In this document: positions 1-11,631 of the stretch, piece after piece
How positions within the stretch are numbered: the stretch's first letter is position 1
Layout of the letters: the number at the start of each line of letters is the position of its first letter
Source of the DNA: Acidobacteriota bacterium
GTDB taxonomy: Bacteria; Acidobacteriota; UBA6911
NCBI GenBank assembly: GCA_963664705.1
Contig: OY761556.1
Location: 1,824,001 to 1,888,000 of the forward strand
Direction of reading: 5' to 3'
DNA: 64,000 nt
Translations under genes and position numbers: made by a program
The notes under the pieces: model-generated
Told to the model about the DNA's origin: nothing
Databases searched by the model: none
Seen by the model: only the letters and a program-made list of their open reading frames with translations

Positions 1-472
1 CCCCTTTTGAGGCAATATAGTGGGGCAGACCCGCAACACCCTCAAAGACGGTGGCTGAAGCGATATTGATAATCTTCCCGCCTTTTTCCTTCATATAGGG
101 GAAGACTGCCTTGATGCAGTGAAAGGGACCGAGTGCGTTGGTATCCATGATGTCTTTCCACTCTTCCGTTGAAACCTCCCAGAAGGGCTTGATTTGTACC
201 AGCACTCCGGCGTCATTGAGCAGGATGTCGATAGCTCCGAACTTGTCCACGGCCGCTTGCGCCAGAGCATTGCATTGCTCCTGGAAACGGACATCAGTCT
301 TCACATAGAGAGCCTGGCCCCCAGCCTTTTCGATTGTACGCACCGTATTTTGTCCGTCACGAATGTCTCCAATGACGACTTTGGCTCCTTCTTTTGCAAA
401 ACCCTCGGCAAAGGCGGCGCCGAGTCCCCGGGCTGCTCCGGTGACAATTGCAACTTTATTTTTCAATCTCAT
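1..472 (-). CDS. SDR family NAD(P)-dependent oxidoreductase, truncated at window start
   Basis: Not in the ORF track. Read manually from ATG at 472: MRLKNKVAIVTGAARGLG (TGxxxGxG), and PHYIASKG (YxxxK) at the window edge; GGGAGG RBS upstream. Confidence 0.9.
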   Translation of the reverse strand, partial: MRLKNKVAIVTGAARGLGAAFAEGFAKEGAKVVIGDIRDGQNTVRTIEKAGGQALYVKTDVRFQEQCNALAQAAVDKFGAIDILLNDAGVLVQIKPFWEVSTEEWKDIMDTNALGPFHCIKAVFPYMKEKGGKIINIASATVFEGVAGLPHYIASKG

Positions 473-595: not shown

Positions 596-1654
596 CTAGG
601 GCTCATTCAGAGCAATTTGGTAGGCGTGGATCAGACCATCCGCTTCGTTTTCGGGGCTTGCGAGTTTCAATGCACGCTGGCATGCGGCTTCCGCGAGCGT
701 TTTGCGGATCTCCGCATCATCGATCAGGCGCACAGCTTTTTCGACAAAATCTGCCGGAGAGTGCAGATCGAAATAACATCCCGAATTGTCTATGCCATCC
801 TCTTGGAAAAAGGGATGTCTGTTTCCAGGGATATCGGAGGCAAGAAAAGGCTTTCCGGCTACCATGGCTTCCAGCAGGGAATTAGAAAGCCCTTCCGACA
901 GCGATGCATTGAGCACAATATCCGAGGAGGCATACGCGGCATGCATTCGTGCAGGTGGAATGGCCCCTAACCAGAATGCAAATGCAGACTGGCGCTTGAT
1001 TTCAGATTCAAATTGCAGGGCATAGGCATTATCGATAGCCGGACCGGCCGCCACGAATCTCGTTTGCGGTCTTAATGAATGCACTGTCACCATGGATTGC
1101 AGGCATTCCACATTGCGCTTGACCGGGCGGATCCCCGCCGGCAGGAAGAAGAGAATGGTATCCGGCGCGCAATGGATGTGTTCGCGAAGATCAAGCGGCT
1201 CAGCGCCGAACCAACTGCAAGCTTTCGGGACAGAAATGAGCTTCGGGGACACCTCGGGAACAAAATCCCTGATCTTCTGCATGATTTCGGGGCTTTGACC
1301 CACAATCACCCGTGCCATTCGCATGATCTGAAGGATGCTTTCATGCTTTGCCGGACTCTCCAGATCCAGATTAATGTCCGTTCCACCAGGAGACAAAACG
1401 AGCGGGAGAGAGCATTTCGTTTTTTCCCAAAACCGCAGAAATAGAGCACCCGCCTTGAATGCATGGTAAACATGAATGAGATCCGGATGAAAACTTTGAA
1501 AGCTTTGCTCCAAGGACGCTAGATCTGATGCATGCGCGGAAACAATCTGAATATCGAGGCCTCGGCCTGTCAGCGACCGTCGCCAGCGCTCCGTGGTGAT
1601 GGCATTGCCGGTCAGGCTTGGAAAAGCAGAGGGCGTAATCAGCAGAATCCTCAT
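596..1654 (-). CDS. GT-B fold family 4 glycosyltransferase (GLT1D1/SenB-like N-terminus)
   Basis: SEGLSNSLLEAM (EX7E), ASDIPGN, GIRPVK, N-terminal TGNAITTERW and GGTD; ATGA overlap with the upstream gene. Confidence 0.9.
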   Translation of the reverse strand: MRILLITPSAFPSLTGNAITTERWRRSLTGRGLDIQIVSAHASDLASLEQSFQSFHPDLIHVYHAFKAGALFLRFWEKTKCSLPLVLSPGGTDINLDLESPAKHESILQIMRMARVIVGQSPEIMQKIRDFVPEVSPKLISVPKACSWFGAEPLDLREHIHCAPDTILFFLPAGIRPVKRNVECLQSMVTVHSLRPQTRFVAAGPAIDNAYALQFESEIKRQSAFAFWLGAIPPARMHAAYASSDIVLNASLSEGLSNSLLEAMVAGKPFLASDIPGNRHPFFQEDGIDNSGCYFDLHSPADFVEKAVRLIDDAEIRKTLAEAACQRALKLASPENEADGLIHAYQIALNEP

Positions 1655-2517
1655 CGGGAAATCGGTGCCTCTGGAAATGGTGTAAGTTCGACGCCGGTTT
1701 CTATTATAGCCCTTAAAAATGAGCCATCGGACAATGCTTTCAGTTCTCTTTCTCTATCAAAAGTGGAAAAGGTCGAAAAAGGGCCGCGAGTGGAATTCTC
1801 CGCATGTCCGGGGTGCACCATCATTTCCGTTAATCCGGGAGAGAGATCCCGGAGGAACTCTGACCAGCTTTCCCCTGGAAGCCTTCCCTTAAAAAAGAGC
1901 CCGCAAAAATGATCCGGAGCCCAAAGACCGGATTCCCGTATCCTGTGCCGAGCAGCCTTTGCATGGCGGCTGAACATGAGCGCCTCGTCGAGTTCCAAAG
2001 GAGAAAGATCCCGGATTTTGCTGGGAGTGGGTTCTTCATCCGCAATGCGAAGCCATGCAATGCCATGTGCCTTGGCTTCCACCAAAACAATTTCAAGAGC
2101 CGCAGGGAAAAAGTGCAGGTGCTGATGTCCGTCGAGATGGTCTGCCCGGATGCCATGATCCCTGAGCCTGGCAATCTGCGCCCGAAGCTCGGTTCGTATT
2201 TCAACTCCAACTTCCGCGCTGCCAGTATTTTGCAGTACCTGCTGGGCTCCCTTTTTCCCCAGGAAACACCCATCCGGTCCTGTCAGATGTTTGAGTCCGG
2301 GTGTAAGAGGCCTGCCTTCTGAAAGATTGAGATGAAGGCCGATCGAAATGGGATGCAATCGCGAAGACTTGATGCCGTCAAGAGCGTCTTCAAAGGCCGG
2401 TCCATTCGTGAGAATGCTGATGCTGGTAATAGTTCCGCACTTGATGGCGGCGATAATTCCCGCATTTCTGGCTTCATCGGCTCCAAGATCATCTGCATTT
2501 ACGATAAGGCGTCTCAT
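1651..2517 (-). CDS. YdjC/ChbG/HpnK family carbohydrate deacetylase
   Basis: LIVNADDLG, GLHLNL, HLDGHQHLH and EMMVHPG motifs. Confidence 0.93.
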   Translation of the reverse strand: MRRLIVNADDLGADEARNAGIIAAIKCGTITSISILTNGPAFEDALDGIKSSRLHPISIGLHLNLSEGRPLTPGLKHLTGPDGCFLGKKGAQQVLQNTGSAEVGVEIRTELRAQIARLRDHGIRADHLDGHQHLHFFPAALEIVLVEAKAHGIAWLRIADEEPTPSKIRDLSPLELDEALMFSRHAKAARHRIRESGLWAPDHFCGLFFKGRLPGESWSEFLRDLSPGLTEMMVHPGHAENSTRGPFSTFSTFDRERELKALSDGSFLRAIIETGVELTPFPEAPISR

Positions 2518-4184
2518 ATACCTGCAAGCCCCGCAGCGCGAAAAAAGTGATTGTAAAAACAGCCTTGTTCGCTCTTCATTTCCACGAACTCCGAAATCCC
2601 CGAGAGGCGAAGGGCCTGCAAATACGCGTAAAGTCCATCATCAAGAGCATCATACTCTGCTTTGGTAAACGGGCGCTCGGTTCTGAGCACAAGGCTTACT
2701 TGCTTAAAGGCATTTCCCAACCGTTCCCGGATTTGATGGGGATTGGCAAGGGAAATGGCGAGAAGCCATAGTCTTCCGGATTCTGCTTTCAGAAATCGGG
2801 GGGCCTGTTCAATGATACTGGAAAGGTGGTTTGTTCCATCGGTGCCCCCATATTTGGGCCCAAATGGGCGAAATCCAGGTGTTTGCGGCGGTGTTGCCAG
2901 GATGACGTCAAACAGGGTTGCGTTGCCGGACGATGCGCTTGCACTCAGAGCATCAAACCAGGAGCCGGCACAGAACTCAATACGGTCGGCCACTCCATTG
3001 CGGTGCGCGTTATCCATGGCGGATTCCAGCGCTTCGGAATCAAGATCGGTGGCGACAACGCGACGGGCTCCCATTTTGGCCGCAGCGATGGCAAGCAGTC
3101 CGGAACCACATCCAAGATCGAGAACTTCGTCACCGGGATGGACGTCAAGAATGCGGGCCAACTCAATCGTTGATTCCGGTGGAGGATGCACTCCCTGCGG
3201 TATTACCAGTTCTATGCTGCCCGCGGGAATGGCTACCTCCACAATGCTCTTTTTCGGGACCTGAAGGCCGCAATAGCGACGCTGGGCGGCTGTCAACATC
3301 TGCTCCACCAGTCCGGGATAGCTGACCCCCGCCCATTGAGCGGAGGTAGCCAGGGCCTCCATGGGCTCGAGGCTGGGAGTTGTATTCGCTTCTAAAAAAA
3401 ATGGGCAACCTTCCGTCGATAGCCGCAGATCAAACCTGGCGTAATCCTGAAGCCCCAAGGCGAAGAATGCTTTTTTTGCAAAATCTTTTAGCTGGGCATC
3501 CAGTTTGCCGCCGAGATCGGCGGGGGCGCATTTATGAGCTTCATGGGTAGCCTCCATGAGTTTGAAATCCTCACTCAGAATTTCCGTTCCGACTTGCCAT
3601 TCGAGAATCGGAAATACTTCAAGGTGGCTTGAATTTCCTACCAGGGAAATTGCCAATTCGCGCCCGGGAATGAACGACTCGACGAGAATGGGCTGCTTGA
3701 GGAGTTCAAACTGGCGTGCAACTTCTGCGTATGCCTCCGGCACTGAATGGATCAGGCGAACCCCACGGCTCATGTGTTCAAACGCGGGTTTGATGATAAG
3801 GGGAGGGCGCAGCCACTCCGGGATTTGCCATTCCTTCGACTGAATGACAATGCCGGGAGGGGTGGGAATCCCTGCCTGCGATAGGACACGCTTGGATGCA
3901 GCTTTGTTATCGGCGATAAGACAGGATTTTGCAGAGGACCCTACAATGCGCGCCATACAGCTTTCAAGCAACAGGCGCACAAACGGTCGATATAGGCCGC
4001 GTCCCAGGTAGGTATCGGTATGATCGATGATGAAGTCGCATTCATGAGCAAGTAAAGACGCCTGCAACTCAATAGCGTTGGAGTCTGTGGTGAGGATTTC
4101 ATGCCCAAGCTCTTGCAGGCCAAGGGAAACGGATTCGGCGCATTGGCAGGGAGAGCCGACGGTATGAACAATTCCTATTTTCAT
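2514..4184 (-). CDS. D-Ala-D-Ala ligase-like ATP-grasp enzyme fused to a class I SAM-dependent methyltransferase
   Basis: N-terminal part: IIKP, VESFIPGRE, YARFD, LEANTTP. C-terminal part: VLDLGCGSG, ATD, DVILATPPQ. Confidence 0.88.
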   Translation of the reverse strand: MKIGIVHTVGSPCQCAESVSLGLQELGHEILTTDSNAIELQASLLAHECDFIIDHTDTYLGRGLYRPFVRLLLESCMARIVGSSAKSCLIADNKAASKRVLSQAGIPTPPGIVIQSKEWQIPEWLRPPLIIKPAFEHMSRGVRLIHSVPEAYAEVARQFELLKQPILVESFIPGRELAISLVGNSSHLEVFPILEWQVGTEILSEDFKLMEATHEAHKCAPADLGGKLDAQLKDFAKKAFFALGLQDYARFDLRLSTEGCPFFLEANTTPSLEPMEALATSAQWAGVSYPGLVEQMLTAAQRRYCGLQVPKKSIVEVAIPAGSIELVIPQGVHPPPESTIELARILDVHPGDEVLDLGCGSGLLAIAAAKMGARRVVATDLDSEALESAMDNAHRNGVADRIEFCAGSWFDALSASASSGNATLFDVILATPPQTPGFRPFGPKYGGTDGTNHLSSIIEQAPRFLKAESGRLWLLAISLANPHQIRERLGNAFKQVSLVLRTERPFTKAEYDALDDGLYAYLQALRLSGISEFVEMKSEQGCFYNHFFRAAGLAGI

Positions 4185-6537: not shown

Positions 6538-8175
6538 ATGCACATGTTTTGCTACCAATGTCAGGAAACGGGGATGGAACGCGGCTGCCTATATTTTGGC
6601 GCCTGCGGGAAAACCGAGGAAACCGCAAATCTGCAGGATCTTCTGCTTCATGTTGTGCGCGGAATTGCGTTTTGGGCTGAGGACGGATTGTCCGAAGGGA
6701 AGGTAGATCGGGAAGTTGGCCTGTTCATATGCAAGGCACTTTTTTCTACTGTTACCAACACCAACTTTGATGCCGCTCGATTCGTCACGATGATACGGGA
6801 AGGGATCGAACTGAGGAATCGCGTGCGCGGCATTCACAACCGGATGCCGGCTGATTTGATCCCCGATTCCGCGGCCTGGGAATCGGATGATGCGGAGGCC
6901 ATTCAACGCAAGTCTCTTTCGATTGACATTCGCAGCCAGAAGGATACGGACTTGCGCTCGATGCAGGAGCTTACGATCTATGGACTGAAGGGGGCCGGGG
7001 CTTTTGCTTTGCATGCAGCGGCACTTGGCTTCCATGACGATTCCATCTTTGAATTCATGATCCGGGCATTCGCGGCCATGAATCGCGAGCAAAGCGAAGC
7101 GCAGCTGGAAGATGCGGCCATCGGAGCGGGAAAAGTCATGATTGCTGCAATGGCGTTGCTCGATGAAGCAAATGTTCATACCTATGGCGTGCCCGAGATA
7201 ACGCAGATTCCGATTGGAGTCGGGAGTCGGCCGGGGATCCTGGTAACGGGACACGACCTCAAAGACCTCGAGGAACTACTCGAACAGAGCAAGGAAAAAG
7301 GGATCGATATTTATACGCACAGCGAAATGTGGGCGGCGCATCAATATCCTTTCTTCAAGAAGTACAAGCATCTCGCAGGTAACTACGGGAATGCCTGGTG
7401 GATGCAGGATGCCGAATTCGCAAGCTTTAACGGGCCAATCCTGGTTACATCCAACTGCATCATTCCGGTGGCTTCAGCCTACAAAGATCGGATTTATACG
7501 ACAGGAGTGGCTGGATATCCCGGTATTCCTCATATTGAGGAAGCGAAGGCCGGCTCCCCGAAGGATTTTTCCGCGCTGATCGAAATCGCTCAAAAATGTG
7601 CGCCTCCCGAAGCTCTGGATAAAGGCGAAATCACCGGCGGATTTTCACACTATGTTGTTGTTCCGCTCGCCAATACAATTCTGGATGCGGTGCGTGCCGG
7701 CAAAATAAAAAAATTCGTGGTTATGGGTGGGTGTGATGGACGCGATCAGCGGAGGGTATATTTCTCAGATCTCGCTCAGGCTCTGCCGAAAGATACTATT
7801 ATCCTTTCCGCGGGTTGCGCAAAATACCGATTCATCAAGATGCCGCTGGGATCCATTGATGGCATTCCGCGCGTGCTGGATGCCGGACAGTGTAACGACT
7901 GCTATTCGCTCGTGCGCATCGCCCTGGCGCTGCAGGAGGCGACCGGGGCGGCAAGTATCAACGATCTGCCGATAGCGCTGGATATTGCCTGGTACGATCA
8001 GAAAGCGGTAGGTGTCATTTTAGCCCTGGCAGCCCTGGGCGTAAAAGGAATACGCATCGGTCCCAGCCTGCCCGCGTTTCTGCAGACCGATGCCGGCCGT
8101 CGCTTCATGAATAAGTACGATATTTTCTGCACTCGGAGTGTGGAAGAGGATTTGGCGGCTATCGTCGGCGCATAA
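6538..8175 (+). CDS. hcp: Hybrid cluster protein (hydroxylamine/NO reductase), class I type
   Basis: MFCYQCQET..GC..GACGK (CX2CX8CX5C), GHDL, YTHSEM, TSNC, GGCDG, GCAKY, DAGQCND, WYDQKA. Confidence 0.96.
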   Translation: MHMFCYQCQETGMERGCLYFGACGKTEETANLQDLLLHVVRGIAFWAEDGLSEGKVDREVGLFICKALFSTVTNTNFDAARFVTMIREGIELRNRVRGIHNRMPADLIPDSAAWESDDAEAIQRKSLSIDIRSQKDTDLRSMQELTIYGLKGAGAFALHAAALGFHDDSIFEFMIRAFAAMNREQSEAQLEDAAIGAGKVMIAAMALLDEANVHTYGVPEITQIPIGVGSRPGILVTGHDLKDLEELLEQSKEKGIDIYTHSEMWAAHQYPFFKKYKHLAGNYGNAWWMQDAEFASFNGPILVTSNCIIPVASAYKDRIYTTGVAGYPGIPHIEEAKAGSPKDFSALIEIAQKCAPPEALDKGEITGGFSHYVVVPLANTILDAVRAGKIKKFVVMGGCDGRDQRRVYFSDLAQALPKDTIILSAGCAKYRFIKMPLGSIDGIPRVLDAGQCNDCYSLVRIALALQEATGAASINDLPIALDIAWYDQKAVGVILALAALGVKGIRIGPSLPAFLQTDAGRRFMNKYDIFCTRSVEEDLAAIVGA

Positions 8176-8223
8176 ATGAAATGGGACTTGTCGCTCGTTT
8201 TGTGGTGAGCCCCGCGAAAATTC

Positions 8224-9180
8224 TCAATGGACGGTGACCGGCAAACCAAGTCCTTCGAGCAGCTCCTTTAGTGAATCGATCCGGGCTTCCGACGGAGGCG
8301 TCGCCTCCAGGATTATCTTGGAGTCATCCAGCCTCTGGTATTTCATGATGCCAAGATTGTGATACGGAAGGAGCTGAACTACCGTAACGGCATTCCCCAG
8401 GGATTTGCAGAATTCGCCGGTTTCCCGGATGCTGTCCTCCGAATCGTTGAAGTCCGGAATGACTGGAATGCGGATCTGCATTTTGCCACCGGCCCCTGCA
8501 ATCCGTTGAGCATTTTCGAGGATCAGGTCATTCGGGACACCGGTAACAATCCTATGCTGCTCATTGTCCATGTGCTTCAGGTCGTATAAAAACAAATCCG
8601 TATAGGGCAGGACCGATTCGATGATGTCGTGGGCGGCATAGCCTGTGGTGTCGAGCGCGGTGTGAATGCCGCGGGCTTTAAGGCCTTTCAGGATTTCCAA
8701 TGTGAACTCCGGCTGGCAAAGTGGCTCTCCGCCGGAAACGGTGACGCCTCCACCGGATTGTTCGTAAAAGGGAATATCCTTGACCAGGCGTTTCAGAAGC
8801 TCTTCCACGGTATAATCCGTGCCGCAGACATAGAGGGCTTTGGAATAGCAGACGGAGGCACAGTCGCCGCAGTCTTCGCAAATAGACCGATTAATGCGAA
8901 CGTGCTGAATATCCTCCTGCGTCACCGCGTGCTTGGTGATGGCGCCGGGGCTGATTCCATGCTGACTGCACGCGGTTAGACATTTGCCGCAGCGAGCCAC
9001 GCCAATGCACCTCATGGAGATCCAGCTGAGCTGTGAATGGAATTGCTGGGACTCCGGACTGTGGCACCACGGGCAACGCAAGGGACAGCCCTTTAGAAAT
9101 ACGGTCGTCCGAATGCCGGGGCCATCCTGTAAAGAGAACCCCTGGATGTCATAGACCTTTCCGGTTAGTGAGTTTTCCAA
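8224..9180 (-). CDS. Glycyl-radical enzyme activase (radical SAM with ferredoxin insert)
   Basis: DGPGIRTTVFLKGCPLRCPWCHSPES, extra Cys clusters, SGGEP, LPYH. Confidence 0.96.
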   Translation of the reverse strand: MENSLTGKVYDIQGFSLQDGPGIRTTVFLKGCPLRCPWCHSPESQQFHSQLSWISMRCIGVARCGKCLTACSQHGISPGAITKHAVTQEDIQHVRINRSICEDCGDCASVCYSKALYVCGTDYTVEELLKRLVKDIPFYEQSGGGVTVSGGEPLCQPEFTLEILKGLKARGIHTALDTTGYAAHDIIESVLPYTDLFLYDLKHMDNEQHRIVTGVPNDLILENAQRIAGAGGKMQIRIPVIPDFNDSEDSIRETGEFCKSLGNAVTVVQLLPYHNLGIMKYQRLDDSKIILEATPPSEARIDSLKELLEGLGLPVTVH

Positions 9181-9210
9181 GATCCGATAGCCTCATTCCG
9201 CAGGAAAAAG

Positions 9211-11631
9211 CTAAAAAGACAGTTCGGTGCGACGGATGATGTCTTCCTGGCTGGCCTTGTATAATTCTACAAAATATGCGCTGAAGCCCGCTATTCGCAC
9301 CACAAGATCTTTGTATTCCTCCGGGGTCTGCTGCGCCTGTCGCAAAACTTTTCCGCTCACGATGTTGAACTGCATCTCCATTCCACCTAAGGCAAAATAG
9401 GTCCGGATGAGCGCGATCAGTTTGCCTTTGCCGGTTTGATTACTCAGCGCCGTGGGATGGAAACGCATATTCAGCAGCGTGCCGTTGGAGAATTTTTTCT
9501 GGTCAATCATGGCTACGGACTTTAGCGTGGCAGTGGGACCGCTCTTATCCAGTTGCTGTACGGGAGAGATTCCGTCGGCAAGCGGTTCGCCGGCCCTCCT
9601 TCCGTCCGGAGACGCGGCGGTCGTCATTCCAAACAAAACGTGGGTTGTCACCGGATACAATCCTGCGGCATATCGACCACGAGGCCCTGTGCTGCGGTTG
9701 ATAGCATTGCCGTAAACATCGGATGCCCATTTTGCAAACTCATCGCTGTACTCGTTGTCATTGCCGTAATGAGGTGCTTCATTCAGAATGAGCTGGCGAA
9801 GATCTTCCTTTCCTTCCCAGTTGCTCATGAGCGCATCATACAAATCGCGGGCCGTAACCAGCTTTTTGTCATATACCATGTATTTCACAACCGCGAGACT
9901 GTCCGCAATGTTGCCGATGGCGATCCCGGCATTTCCGGTAGAGTTATACCTGGCGCCGCCCTTCATGACATCTTTGCCGGATTCCATGCAGCCGTCGATG
10001 GTTGCGGAGAGGAGTGGAAGCTGCATGTGTTCGGACGCCACATACTCCCACGTATTGACCATGCTGATCTGCCAGTTGACGAAGTACTCGATCTGCTTCT
10101 TAACGGCGATCAGGACATCATCGAAAGTTTCCATTTCATATAAATATCCGGTGGGCAACCCGACCTGCCGATCCGATGGCTTGCCGTCGGGACCTGGCAT
10201 TGGATTGATTCCGTTATTGATGCCCAGCAGGAACGCATTCAGGAGATTGAAAAAGGACTCTGTTCCGCTTCCCCCGGGACAAGCCCATTCATCACCGCAG
10301 GCCTGGGGTTCAACGCACCCGATGAGGCAATAGTTGCGAGCGCTTTCCAGGGGCAGGCCTCGTGCCATCAGTGCCGGGATGATGATATCGTCGTTCTCAA
10401 AGGTTGGAACGCCTCCCGCAATCTGCGTGGTCTCAATGGCGGCTTCCCACAAAGCCTGTGGAGTCCCTTTATGAATGCGCAGCGATTGCGGCGGATCATG
10501 CAATACAAGACGCCCTGCAGATTGCAGCATCATGAAGGAAACGGGGTTGGTCGCGTCCTTGCCATCTCTGGTTACACCGCCAATAGTCATCAACTGACCA
10601 CTGGTGTAGCCCGGACCCGAAAGAGTGGCGAAGTAGGGCCATATTTTGTTCATTTCCGCGACCTTGAGATAAAAGAGATCCAGCAGCTCTTGTGCCTGGT
10701 CGTGGGTAATGCGTCCGGCTGCGATGTCGGCGTCGTAATAGGAGCCAAGATATTGATCCACGCGGCCAAAGCTGATGCCATGCTGCTGGCCATCGAGGCA
10801 CATCGCAATCTGATAGAGGTACATGCACTGGACGGCGTCATGATAGGTGCGGCAGGGGTTTTCCATAATCCAGTTAAGACAGTCCGCCATCTGGAGAAGT
10901 TCTTTTTTGCGAGCGGAATCCGATTCCAGAGATGCCAAACGTTCACATTCCTGTGCGTAGCGCTTGGAGAAAGTGATGATGCCGTCACATACGAGGGTTA
11001 CGGCTCGGTAAAAATTGTATCGAACGGCCCCATCGCCGAACATGACGCCTTCCAGTTCATTCATACGGTCCCGGGCTTCTGCCCGGATAGCGCCAAACCC
11101 CTTGTGCATCGCCTTTTCAAAATTGGCTACGAAATGCCCTACCGGAGAAGAGCAAATATTGGAGGTGCCGAAGTAAACGACGCCACTGCCGGCTGCATCA
11201 AAATAGCCCAGCGGGATGTATTCATCCACCTTGGCGCTCAGACATTCCTTGCGCCAAAAATCTCCCGTGTTCAGAACGTATTGGGCATCCTTTTCGTCAA
11301 TGTCATAAGGATCTGCTTCCCGCAAGGGAATCGTTCCCGCCCTCAATTCATCCAGAAACCAACCAAAGGAGGTCTCCGGGTACAGGGCGCACGCACGGTA
11401 GGAAGTTGCCTGCCAGCCTACAATCACCTCATCGGGATTGATAAGCACCGGGAGTTTTTCGCAAAGGTTTTTGAAGTTTTTGGCGCGTTTCAAAATACCC
11501 TGCAATTGAGGATTCTCCTTGTAGAACTCTGTAACGATTTTGTACCGGGCGATGCAGATGCGCGGCCTGGTGGACCGATACTTCTGGCGGATTTTGGTAA
11601 CGCGATCGGTTACAGGGCTTAGAGCGAACAT
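9211..11631 (-). CDS. Glycyl radical enzyme (PFL2/eliminase-like, substrate unknown)
   Basis: Cys loop CLIGCVEP and Gly loop VRIAGFSAYF; lacks the adjacent Cys-Cys of true PFL. Confidence 0.95.
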   Translation of the reverse strand: MFALSPVTDRVTKIRQKYRSTRPRICIARYKIVTEFYKENPQLQGILKRAKNFKNLCEKLPVLINPDEVIVGWQATSYRACALYPETSFGWFLDELRAGTIPLREADPYDIDEKDAQYVLNTGDFWRKECLSAKVDEYIPLGYFDAAGSGVVYFGTSNICSSPVGHFVANFEKAMHKGFGAIRAEARDRMNELEGVMFGDGAVRYNFYRAVTLVCDGIITFSKRYAQECERLASLESDSARKKELLQMADCLNWIMENPCRTYHDAVQCMYLYQIAMCLDGQQHGISFGRVDQYLGSYYDADIAAGRITHDQAQELLDLFYLKVAEMNKIWPYFATLSGPGYTSGQLMTIGGVTRDGKDATNPVSFMMLQSAGRLVLHDPPQSLRIHKGTPQALWEAAIETTQIAGGVPTFENDDIIIPALMARGLPLESARNYCLIGCVEPQACGDEWACPGGSGTESFFNLLNAFLLGINNGINPMPGPDGKPSDRQVGLPTGYLYEMETFDDVLIAVKKQIEYFVNWQISMVNTWEYVASEHMQLPLLSATIDGCMESGKDVMKGGARYNSTGNAGIAIGNIADSLAVVKYMVYDKKLVTARDLYDALMSNWEGKEDLRQLILNEAPHYGNDNEYSDEFAKWASDVYGNAINRSTGPRGRYAAGLYPVTTHVLFGMTTAASPDGRRAGEPLADGISPVQQLDKSGPTATLKSVAMIDQKKFSNGTLLNMRFHPTALSNQTGKGKLIALIRTYFALGGMEMQFNIVSGKVLRQAQQTPEEYKDLVVRIAGFSAYFVELYKASQEDIIRRTELSF

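Follow-up and report, generated by a model that had tools for sequence, protein, structure and literature searches.

What is the product of a compact operon in which a sugar-transferring enzyme is coupled to enzymes for deacetylation, methylation and amide ligation? The question is raised by a 64,000-nucleotide stretch of Acidobacteriota bacterium DNA (assembly GCA_963664705.1, contig OY761556.1, positions 1,824,001 to 1,888,000; hereafter the window), near the start of which three minus-strand genes lie end to end. A sequence-only reading had described these genes as joined by two ATGA stop/start overlaps and as encoding four activities, an ATP-grasp ligase, an S-adenosylmethionine (SAM) methyltransferase, a YdjC deacetylase and a GT4 glycosyltransferase, coupled in a pathway with a predicted amino-sugar product. 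Both overlaps are present in the open reading frame (ORF) coordinates (Table 1), a domain search found all four activities, and the gene order is conserved across loci, in keeping with a coupled pathway. The glycosyltransferase (GT), judged by its sequence, is a relative of SenB and not a BshA, and the product is more likely a selenium-containing amino sugar than a bacillithiol-like thiol. There is about an even chance that the operon turns UDP-N-acetylglucosamine (abbreviated UDP-GlcNAc), together with selenophosphate, into a 1-seleno-glucosamine that is methylated and N-acylated.

The cassette is real and conserved, and not a chance arrangement. Neighbourhoods were compared at the best 80 of 315 genome stretches that the GT retrieved and, from metagenomes, at the best 80 of 239 stretches that the ligase–methyltransferase fusion retrieved. 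Among the genome loci, whose records are mostly titled Syntrophales, Syntrophorhabdus, other Deltaproteobacteria and Acidobacteriota, 61 carry ligase, methyltransferase, YdjC and GT in that order (ligase and methyltransferase being fused in 55), nine carry methyltransferase, YdjC and GT, eight carry YdjC and GT, and two have the GT alone at contig ends. The expected co-occurrence of homologues was borne out at the 69 genome loci with at least 2.7 kb of upstream sequence: YdjC is adjacent to the GT in 69/69, the methyltransferase is present in 63/69, and the ligase, and with it all four domains, in 58/69. The ligase is the most dispensable module, absent from 11 of these loci; the cassette of Syntrophorhabdus aromaticivorans (L039) also appears to have no intact ligase. 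The methyltransferase gene ends in an (A/G/T)TGA tetramer in 69 of 70 loci, as does the YdjC gene in 62 of 78. At the metagenome loci, YdjC follows the fusion in 62/62 where the room is at least 500 bases, and the GT is found in 52/52 where it is at least 1500. The fusion family counts 458 proteins at E ≤ 1e-30 out of 8000 candidates scored; its 119 best non-self matches cover 96–100% of the query at 52–64% identity; the GT has 624 matches at E ≤ 1e-20. On our reading of the neighbour cluster list, no further protein-coding family occurs in more than ~20 of the 160 loci. A broad profile run on 300 genomes of the window's phylum found only three further members of the GT family, its other 14 non-self matches being nine SenB-type, three BshA-type and two other GT4 enzymes, while a single-protein locus search gave no match.

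Against NCBIfam, the top match of the GT is the uncharacterised GPMC GT NF038229 (274.1 bits, cut-off 400, E 1.5e-81), and its best functionally characterised match is SenB (TIGR04348; 88.1 bits, under the cut-off of 300), with BshA at 37.3 bits (cut-off 273.7) and MshA at 32. In three trees the GT family and SenB fall on one side of a branch with SH-aLRT support of 100, 99 and 98.8, and a clade of the family with BshA was rejected by the approximately unbiased (AU) test (p 0.001; LG+G4, 29 rows). The trees and the test were quick ones of 29–61 rows, from which nine rows on long branches had been left out, and two of the trees were thinned further; seven reference rows were confirmed above their NCBIfam cut-offs. 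The GT family is placed as a sister branch to SenB, not nested within it. In a Foldseek search with the AlphaFold model of the GT (pLDDT 94), the top 10 matches were all SenB.

The active site was compared using SenB residues in V. paradoxus numbering, mapped through the annotated Methylorubrum SenB. SenB G19, N20, T23, R26, W27, H58 and R61 correspond to G16, N17, T20, R23, W24, H64 and K67 of the GT, and G84, T85, D86, R155, K158, E231 and E239 to G91, T92, D93, R176, K179, E254 and E262. These residues are kept in 117–119 of 119 close homologues (N17 in 118, T20 in 117, R23 in 118, H64 in 118), except position 67, which is R or K in 111. In SenB, three reports place selenophosphate on N20, H58, R61, T83, T85 and R155 and assign Se–P cleavage to K158 (PMC10891094, PMC10702425, PMC11237966). 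Four of the six pocket residues are identical in the GT, with R61 replaced by K67 and T83 by G90, and the donor-selectivity residues N20, T23 and E231 as well as the Se–P-cleaving K158 are all matched (N17, T20, E254 and K179). Since R176, K179, E254, E262 and the GTD motif also occur in BshA, the discriminating positions are only N17, T20, R23, H64, K67 and position 90. At positions 17, 20, 23, 64 and 67, where BshA rows read S, A/V, E, Y and P, the GT sides with SenB each time. Position 90 is G, A or S in 119/119 close homologues and His in none of them, and it is Thr in 74 of 130 distant homologues; at this position BshA has His and SenB has Thr (Gly in one SenB row above the cut-off). The BshA His (H118/H120) of the TLHGTD motif is reported essential for retaining catalysis (H118 in PMC10361700).

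The GT thus resembles the SenB/SenC module, the selenosugar module of selenoneine and ovoselenol biosynthesis (PDB 8jjn, 8jjq, 8jjt, 8rz3, 8fbx, 8k5u), in its GT-B fold, its GNxxTxxRW loop, its equivalents of H58, R/K61, GTD, R155, K158, E231 and E239, and its lack of a retaining-type His. It differs from SenB in having 26% identity, Gly for T83 and Ile for R22; its partners are YdjC, a methyltransferase and an ATP-grasp ligase instead of SenA or OvsA, and its hosts belong largely to anaerobic lineages. A search of the source genome for a SenA/OvsA partner gave only partial matches of 104–111 aa, and a SenA signature search gave no match anywhere, controls included, and so carries no information. 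The GPMC system GT4 (NF038229, Glyco4_Geo_Pelo) belongs to the same broad GT family, but four GPMC-type loci (L199, L204, L207, L211) have no YdjC and no such methyltransferase or ligase family beside the GT.

Three of 72,556 plasmids match the GT, two of them annotated senB and the third a Streptomyces GT. This last, a SenB-clade GT on plasmid NZ_CP109380.1 (L217:6965-10631), shares its operon with two hydrolases, of the alpha/beta and HAD types, and with a major facilitator superfamily transporter, possibly another pathway of SenB-clade GTs. Separately, the SenB-type genes at L224 and L230 (genomes G006 and G132) carry, at about codon four, an in-frame TGA that falls in the first beta-strand and not within a redox motif; it could be Trp, selenocysteine or a wrong start.

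We infer every reaction of the scheme that follows, taking the gene structure, conservation, domains, residues and tree position as observed. SenB makes 1-seleno-beta-GlcNAc from UDP-GlcNAc and selenophosphate (bioRxiv 2022.04.13.486033). By phylogeny and residues, the GT would likewise join selenophosphate, supplied by one of two SelDs, to UDP-GlcNAc with inversion, and K179 would cleave the Se–P bond to leave 1-seleno-beta-GlcNAc. The methyltransferase may then cap the selenol as a methylselenide or, alternatively, N-methylate the freed amine. YdjC, of a family with known deacetylase activity, would strip the N-acetyl group from this putative substrate, and the ATP-grasp domain, going by the chemistry of its fold, would form an acyl-phosphate from a carboxylate, probably an amino acid, and ligate it to the sugar amine. 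Several orders of the last three steps are possible. The cassette would then work like a SenB module followed by bacillithiol-style tailoring, while by score it falls outside SenB, BshA, GPMC and Ddl. Mammals excrete a methylselenosugar, of which the proposed product would be a microbial counterpart with an extra acyl group. It would likely serve to store or detoxify selenium, as a stable and non-reactive compound, in habitats that are sulfidic and anoxic. It is possible, at rather less than an even chance, that syntrophs and other anaerobic bacteria have here a dedicated selenometabolite pathway of their own, independent of the O2-requiring SenA/OvsA. An aminoacylated methylseleno-glucosamine would then arise through a second family of selenosugar synthases, a bacterial Se-methyltransferase acting on selenosugars, and the deacetylase paired with the ATP-grasp enzyme.

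The methyltransferase domain offers a further link to selenium. Its motif I reads LDLGCGSG and its motif IV TPPQ, where related enzymes carry D/N-PP; among 119 fusions, motif IV begins with T in at least 96 and with N in three. It lacks the (N/D)PP(Y/F) of HemK/PrmC-type enzymes and scores 61 bits against PrmC's cut-off of 199. Other members of the family carry TLPQ, LLPH or NLPQ, which indicates that the amide-orienting Asn is not required. The source genome also encodes a standalone paralogue (G000:C1:4922859-4923608; 35% identity over 231 aa), located between a YedE selenium transporter (TIGR04112, 493 bits, cut-off 200) and a SclA-like lyase that exceeds the TIGR01977 cut-off (461 bits against 377) and is under the cut-off for SclA itself (416 against 525). 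Among 30 genomes of the genus, which are kin and not independent counts, the fusion occurs in six, the standalone methyltransferase in six and both in five, and the YedE/SclA-like context surrounds three of the six standalone copies. We regard this context as suggestive of selenium, not as proof. A 641-aa protein (P0295) fuses a SenB-sister GT to the same methyltransferase family, which ties the methyltransferase to the GT product. The paralogue's selenium-type operon as a whole (G000:C1:4921710-4927333, that is L246:1710-7333, minus strand) encodes a solute-binding protein with a twin-arginine (TAT) signal, a NapH-like ferredoxin, a short NifB-like radical SAM protein, the YedE transporter, the paralogue and the TIGR01977/SclA-like lyase; all six genes are also found in G839 and the last three in G838.

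Sister versions of the cassette with other partners also exist. Among twenty distant loci of the GT, YdjC lies beside it in nine, three with the methyltransferase as well; a PIG-L replaces it in one, and ten have no recognised partner. At one locus (L203) YdjC, GT and selD stand in a row. Two others (L210 and L212) have the order methyltransferase, YdjC, RimK-like ATP-grasp, GT, in which the RimK-like enzyme (Pfam E 2e-9 in L212; the L210 copy is 52% identical to it) is unrelated to the ligase of the window, so amide ligation appears to have been recruited twice, yet it is optional. At L205:8036-9766 a sister GT is followed by a PIG-L/BshB-like deacetylase in place of YdjC.

Several observations weigh against the predicted selenium product. 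A VIA structure comparison ties MshA (35.1), BshA (35.0) and SenB (34.0), leaving them unseparated by fold, and a PDB profile search places BshA slightly above SenB for the GT. The source genome has two selD, two selA and tRNA-Sec calls, and selD was detected in 49 of 50 genomes that carry the cassette (SelB being present in the one exception) and in 26 of 27 in a second tally, but two background samples give 188/201 and 237/301, the latter including three genomes flagged unpublished (G049, G152, G024), and there is no enrichment. Given the 188/201 background, selD in carriers shows only that the supply requirement is satisfied, and we rejected its co-occurrence as support for selenium. Furthermore, selD lies in just 2 of 180 cassette loci (1 of 8 for true senB loci), and a search of the GPMC-type carrier G372 found no selD, selA or selB. 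In the source genome, near G000:C1 3076500 (L002:1309-2946), a selD gene without in-frame TGA encodes a 545-aa SelD with a Cys-rich N-terminal extension and a C-terminal extension. Beside it lie selA and a tRNA-Sec call, along with a methyltransferase-like ORF.

These points bear on a variant with the same logic and no selenium. Its pocket would take thiophosphate or some other small acceptor, phosphorylated or anionic, and the cassette would make a glucosamine glycoside, methylthio- or O-linked, which is then acylated and could serve, for instance, as an osmolyte or for storage. We consider this unlikely, though by no means negligible. The pocket residues fit a phosphate-bearing acceptor and do not specify selenium, the change of T83 to G, A or S enlarges the pocket, and the selD tallies and G372 are as this variant would have them; SenB itself discriminates only 10–20-fold against thiophosphate (PMC10702425). 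On the other hand, SenC/SelD gave no thiophosphate in vitro (bioRxiv 2022.04.13.486033), and no other source is evident; the YedE/SclA-like operon of the methyltransferase paralogue and the sister cassette that abuts selD also speak for a selenosugar.

The structural ties bear instead on a bacillithiol or mycothiol analogue. In these pathways (BshA, BshB, BshC and NmbA; MshA, MshB and MshC) GlcNAc transfer is followed by de-N-acetylation, amide ligation and, with NmbA, methylation, and the cassette shares this order of chemistry and the GT-B fold. A retaining GT would link GlcNAc to a small acid or polyol as an alpha O-glycoside, YdjC would deacetylate it, the ATP-grasp domain would add cysteine and the methyltransferase would N-methylate it to give a low-molecular-weight thiol. 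We hold this to be distinctly unlikely, even with the parallel order, the tie in fold and the slight lead of BshA in the profile search. Of 40 carrier handles (which include three pairs that are the same genomes), 32 gave no BshC, all of them outside the window's genus group, so those carriers could need another thiol, and in one sister cassette a BshB-like PIG-L takes the place of YdjC. However, the clade of GT and BshA is rejected, the BshA His is missing and the N-terminal loop is SenB-type. The source genome has its own BshA (549 bits, at G000:C1:1979729) and BshC (430 bits, away from the cassette), both above cut-off, BshC is present in 4/4 same-genus carriers tested, and the ligase, whose step completes and defines bacillithiol logic, is missing in the 11 loci noted above. 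Of the bacillithiol-like logic that the sequence-only reading had proposed, the coupling of GT, deacetylase, ligase and methyltransferase stands, as does its view that the deacetylase and ligase use other folds (YdjC and not PIG-L, ATP-grasp and not BshC). Its BshA/MshA model for the first step is not supported.

The deacetylase belongs to the YdjC family by motif and by Pfam score. NADD, GLHLN, DGHQHLH and EMMVHP are intact, the Pfam PF04794 score is 195 bits against a gathering threshold of 29.7, and phmmer gives E 4e-16 to chitooligosaccharide deacetylase 7vi8. Among 130 full-length copies, 123 have NADD or TADD and 119 have DxHxHxH. It shares the catalytic and metal-binding motifs of ChbG/YdjC deacetylases and HpnK and scores below both NCBIfam cut-offs (ChbG 112 bits against 227; HpnK, the best match, 142 against 232.6), and no chb or hpn neighbours were seen around the cassette. 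The HpnK match would suit a cassette that tailors a lipid or surface glycan, adding GlcNAc to a membrane or polymer acceptor that is then deacetylated, aminoacylated and methylated, as HpnK acts on hopanoids, or in an exopolysaccharide. Two ligase-less cassettes do lie near polysaccharide genes, yet the neighbour cluster list for the 160 loci shows no transporter, membrane protein or glycan gene as a conserved neighbour, and the GT pocket suits a small-anion acceptor; we find such tailoring quite improbable. The same two ligase-less cassettes have a second, unrelated methyltransferase upstream (L058:7227-8024 and L066:3244-4134).

The ligase domain has the Ddl fold (TM score 0.85–0.86 by target length, best chains) and the invariant ATP/Mg/acyl-phosphate residues K94, K132, E169, K208, R250, D252, E265 and N267. 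These place it in the ATP-grasp superfamily by fold and by the ATP/Mg-binding Lys, Glu, Arg-x-Asp and Glu-x-Asn, and it shares them with Ddl and Ddl-like ATP-grasps. A ligase that simply made D-Ala-D-Ala would have spoken against the sequence-only reading, and the evidence shows a different enzyme. It scores 100.4 bits on TIGR01205 (D-Ala-D-Ala ligase) against a cut-off of 245.65, a canonical Ddl (345 bits) is encoded elsewhere in the source genome, and relative to that enzyme the N-terminal Glu loop, HG motif, GSS loop and omega-loop Tyr are replaced. The family has motifs of its own, namely CxC (C13/C15), DHTD (54–57), EHMSR (136–140) and an F-K-L stretch, and is fused to the methyltransferase. 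We predict an amide ligase that is not Ddl. A D-Ala-D-Ala or Van-type ligase fused by chance has next to no probability in spite of the fold and of best database matches to Ddl, given also that a RimK-like enzyme fills the slot in sister cassettes. ESM Atlas returned only generic Ddl-like and PrmC/PrmA-like clusters for the fusion domains. The possibility that the CxC marks a seleno- or thiophosphate synthetase was set aside, the RimK-like replacement having no such motif in its N-terminal part. Elsewhere, a ligase–methyltransferase fusion at L280:4747-6399 (G498) has neither YdjC nor GT within the 14 kb fetched, and the source genome contains tandem Ddl-like ATP-grasp genes under the Ddl cut-off (G000:C1:1522328-1524162) that are unrelated to the cassette.

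No description of the cassette was found in the literature searched, which lay outside most subscription journals. A second selenosugar synthase with methyltransferase and deacetylase partners in anaerobes may recently have been reported, although no such report was found in the literature searched; if it exists, the novelty shrinks to the ligase step. Selenosugars, selenoneine and ovoselenol are the only selenium-specific small-molecule pathway products named in the ovoselenol preprint (PMC11030361), and a 2026 review gives the same two end products, selenoneine and ovoselenol (PMC13188914). Non-heme iron oxidases act in both of those routes. With its other partners and its occurrence in hundreds of sequences from anaerobes, a sister of SenB would bring a new class of selenometabolite, a route that needs no oxygen and as many as three new enzyme activities, and the selenium reading, if true, would provide the GPMC-type GTs, an uncharacterised family, with a function open to testing. 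The cassette lends itself to direct tests, since its three proteins are soluble and a SelD-coupled assay is established. Should the selenium reading prove wrong, it would still encode a widespread pathway to an amino-sugar metabolite not previously described.

Table 1. Features of the cassette and the adjoining gene in the window.
Feature	Position	Strand	Remarks
ATP-grasp/methyltransferase fusion gene (P0001)	2514-4184	minus	ORF, 556 aa
N-terminal ATP-grasp domain of fusion, residues 1-305	3270..4184	minus	predicted amide ligase, Ddl fold
C-terminal HemK-like class I SAM methyltransferase domain of fusion, residues 312-556	2514..3251	minus	
ATGA stop/start overlap, fusion gene to YdjC	2514..2517	minus	
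YdjC/ChbG-family carbohydrate de-N-acetylase (P0002)	1651..2517	minus	288 aa
ATGA stop/start overlap, YdjC to GT	1651..1654	minus	
GT-B/GT4 glycosyltransferase (P0003)	596..1654	minus	352 aa; clade sister to SenB, GPMC-like (NF038229)
Short-chain dehydrogenase/reductase (SDR) oxidoreductase	1..472	minus	runs off window; excluded from cassette

The Pfam domains behind these assignments are Dala_Dala_lig_C (E 1e-25, residues 101–298), PrmA (E 2.5e-18) and MTS (residues 342–503) in the fusion, YdjC (E 2.5e-57) in P0002 and Glycos_transf_1 (E 2e-15) in P0003. The GC content of the cassette equals the genome mean (0.532 vs 0.532), and a promoter and terminator scan of the cassette gave signals at chance level. 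The SDR gene, which had been suggested to belong to the operon, is not conserved: matches occur in 16 of 180 loci and are generic, at an identity of just 29–33%. Its start codon at 472 lies 123 bases beyond the GT stop, and it may be co-transcribed with the cassette at the source locus. A response regulator 236 bases upstream was likewise rejected as a member, not being a conserved neighbour. Further along the window (6538-11631, plus strand), the domain search gives a prismane/HCP-family gene, followed by an apparent glycyl-radical activase and an apparent 806-aa glycyl-radical enzyme, both judged by their translations, and a near-identical N-terminus occurs ~7 kb from the cassette in L284.

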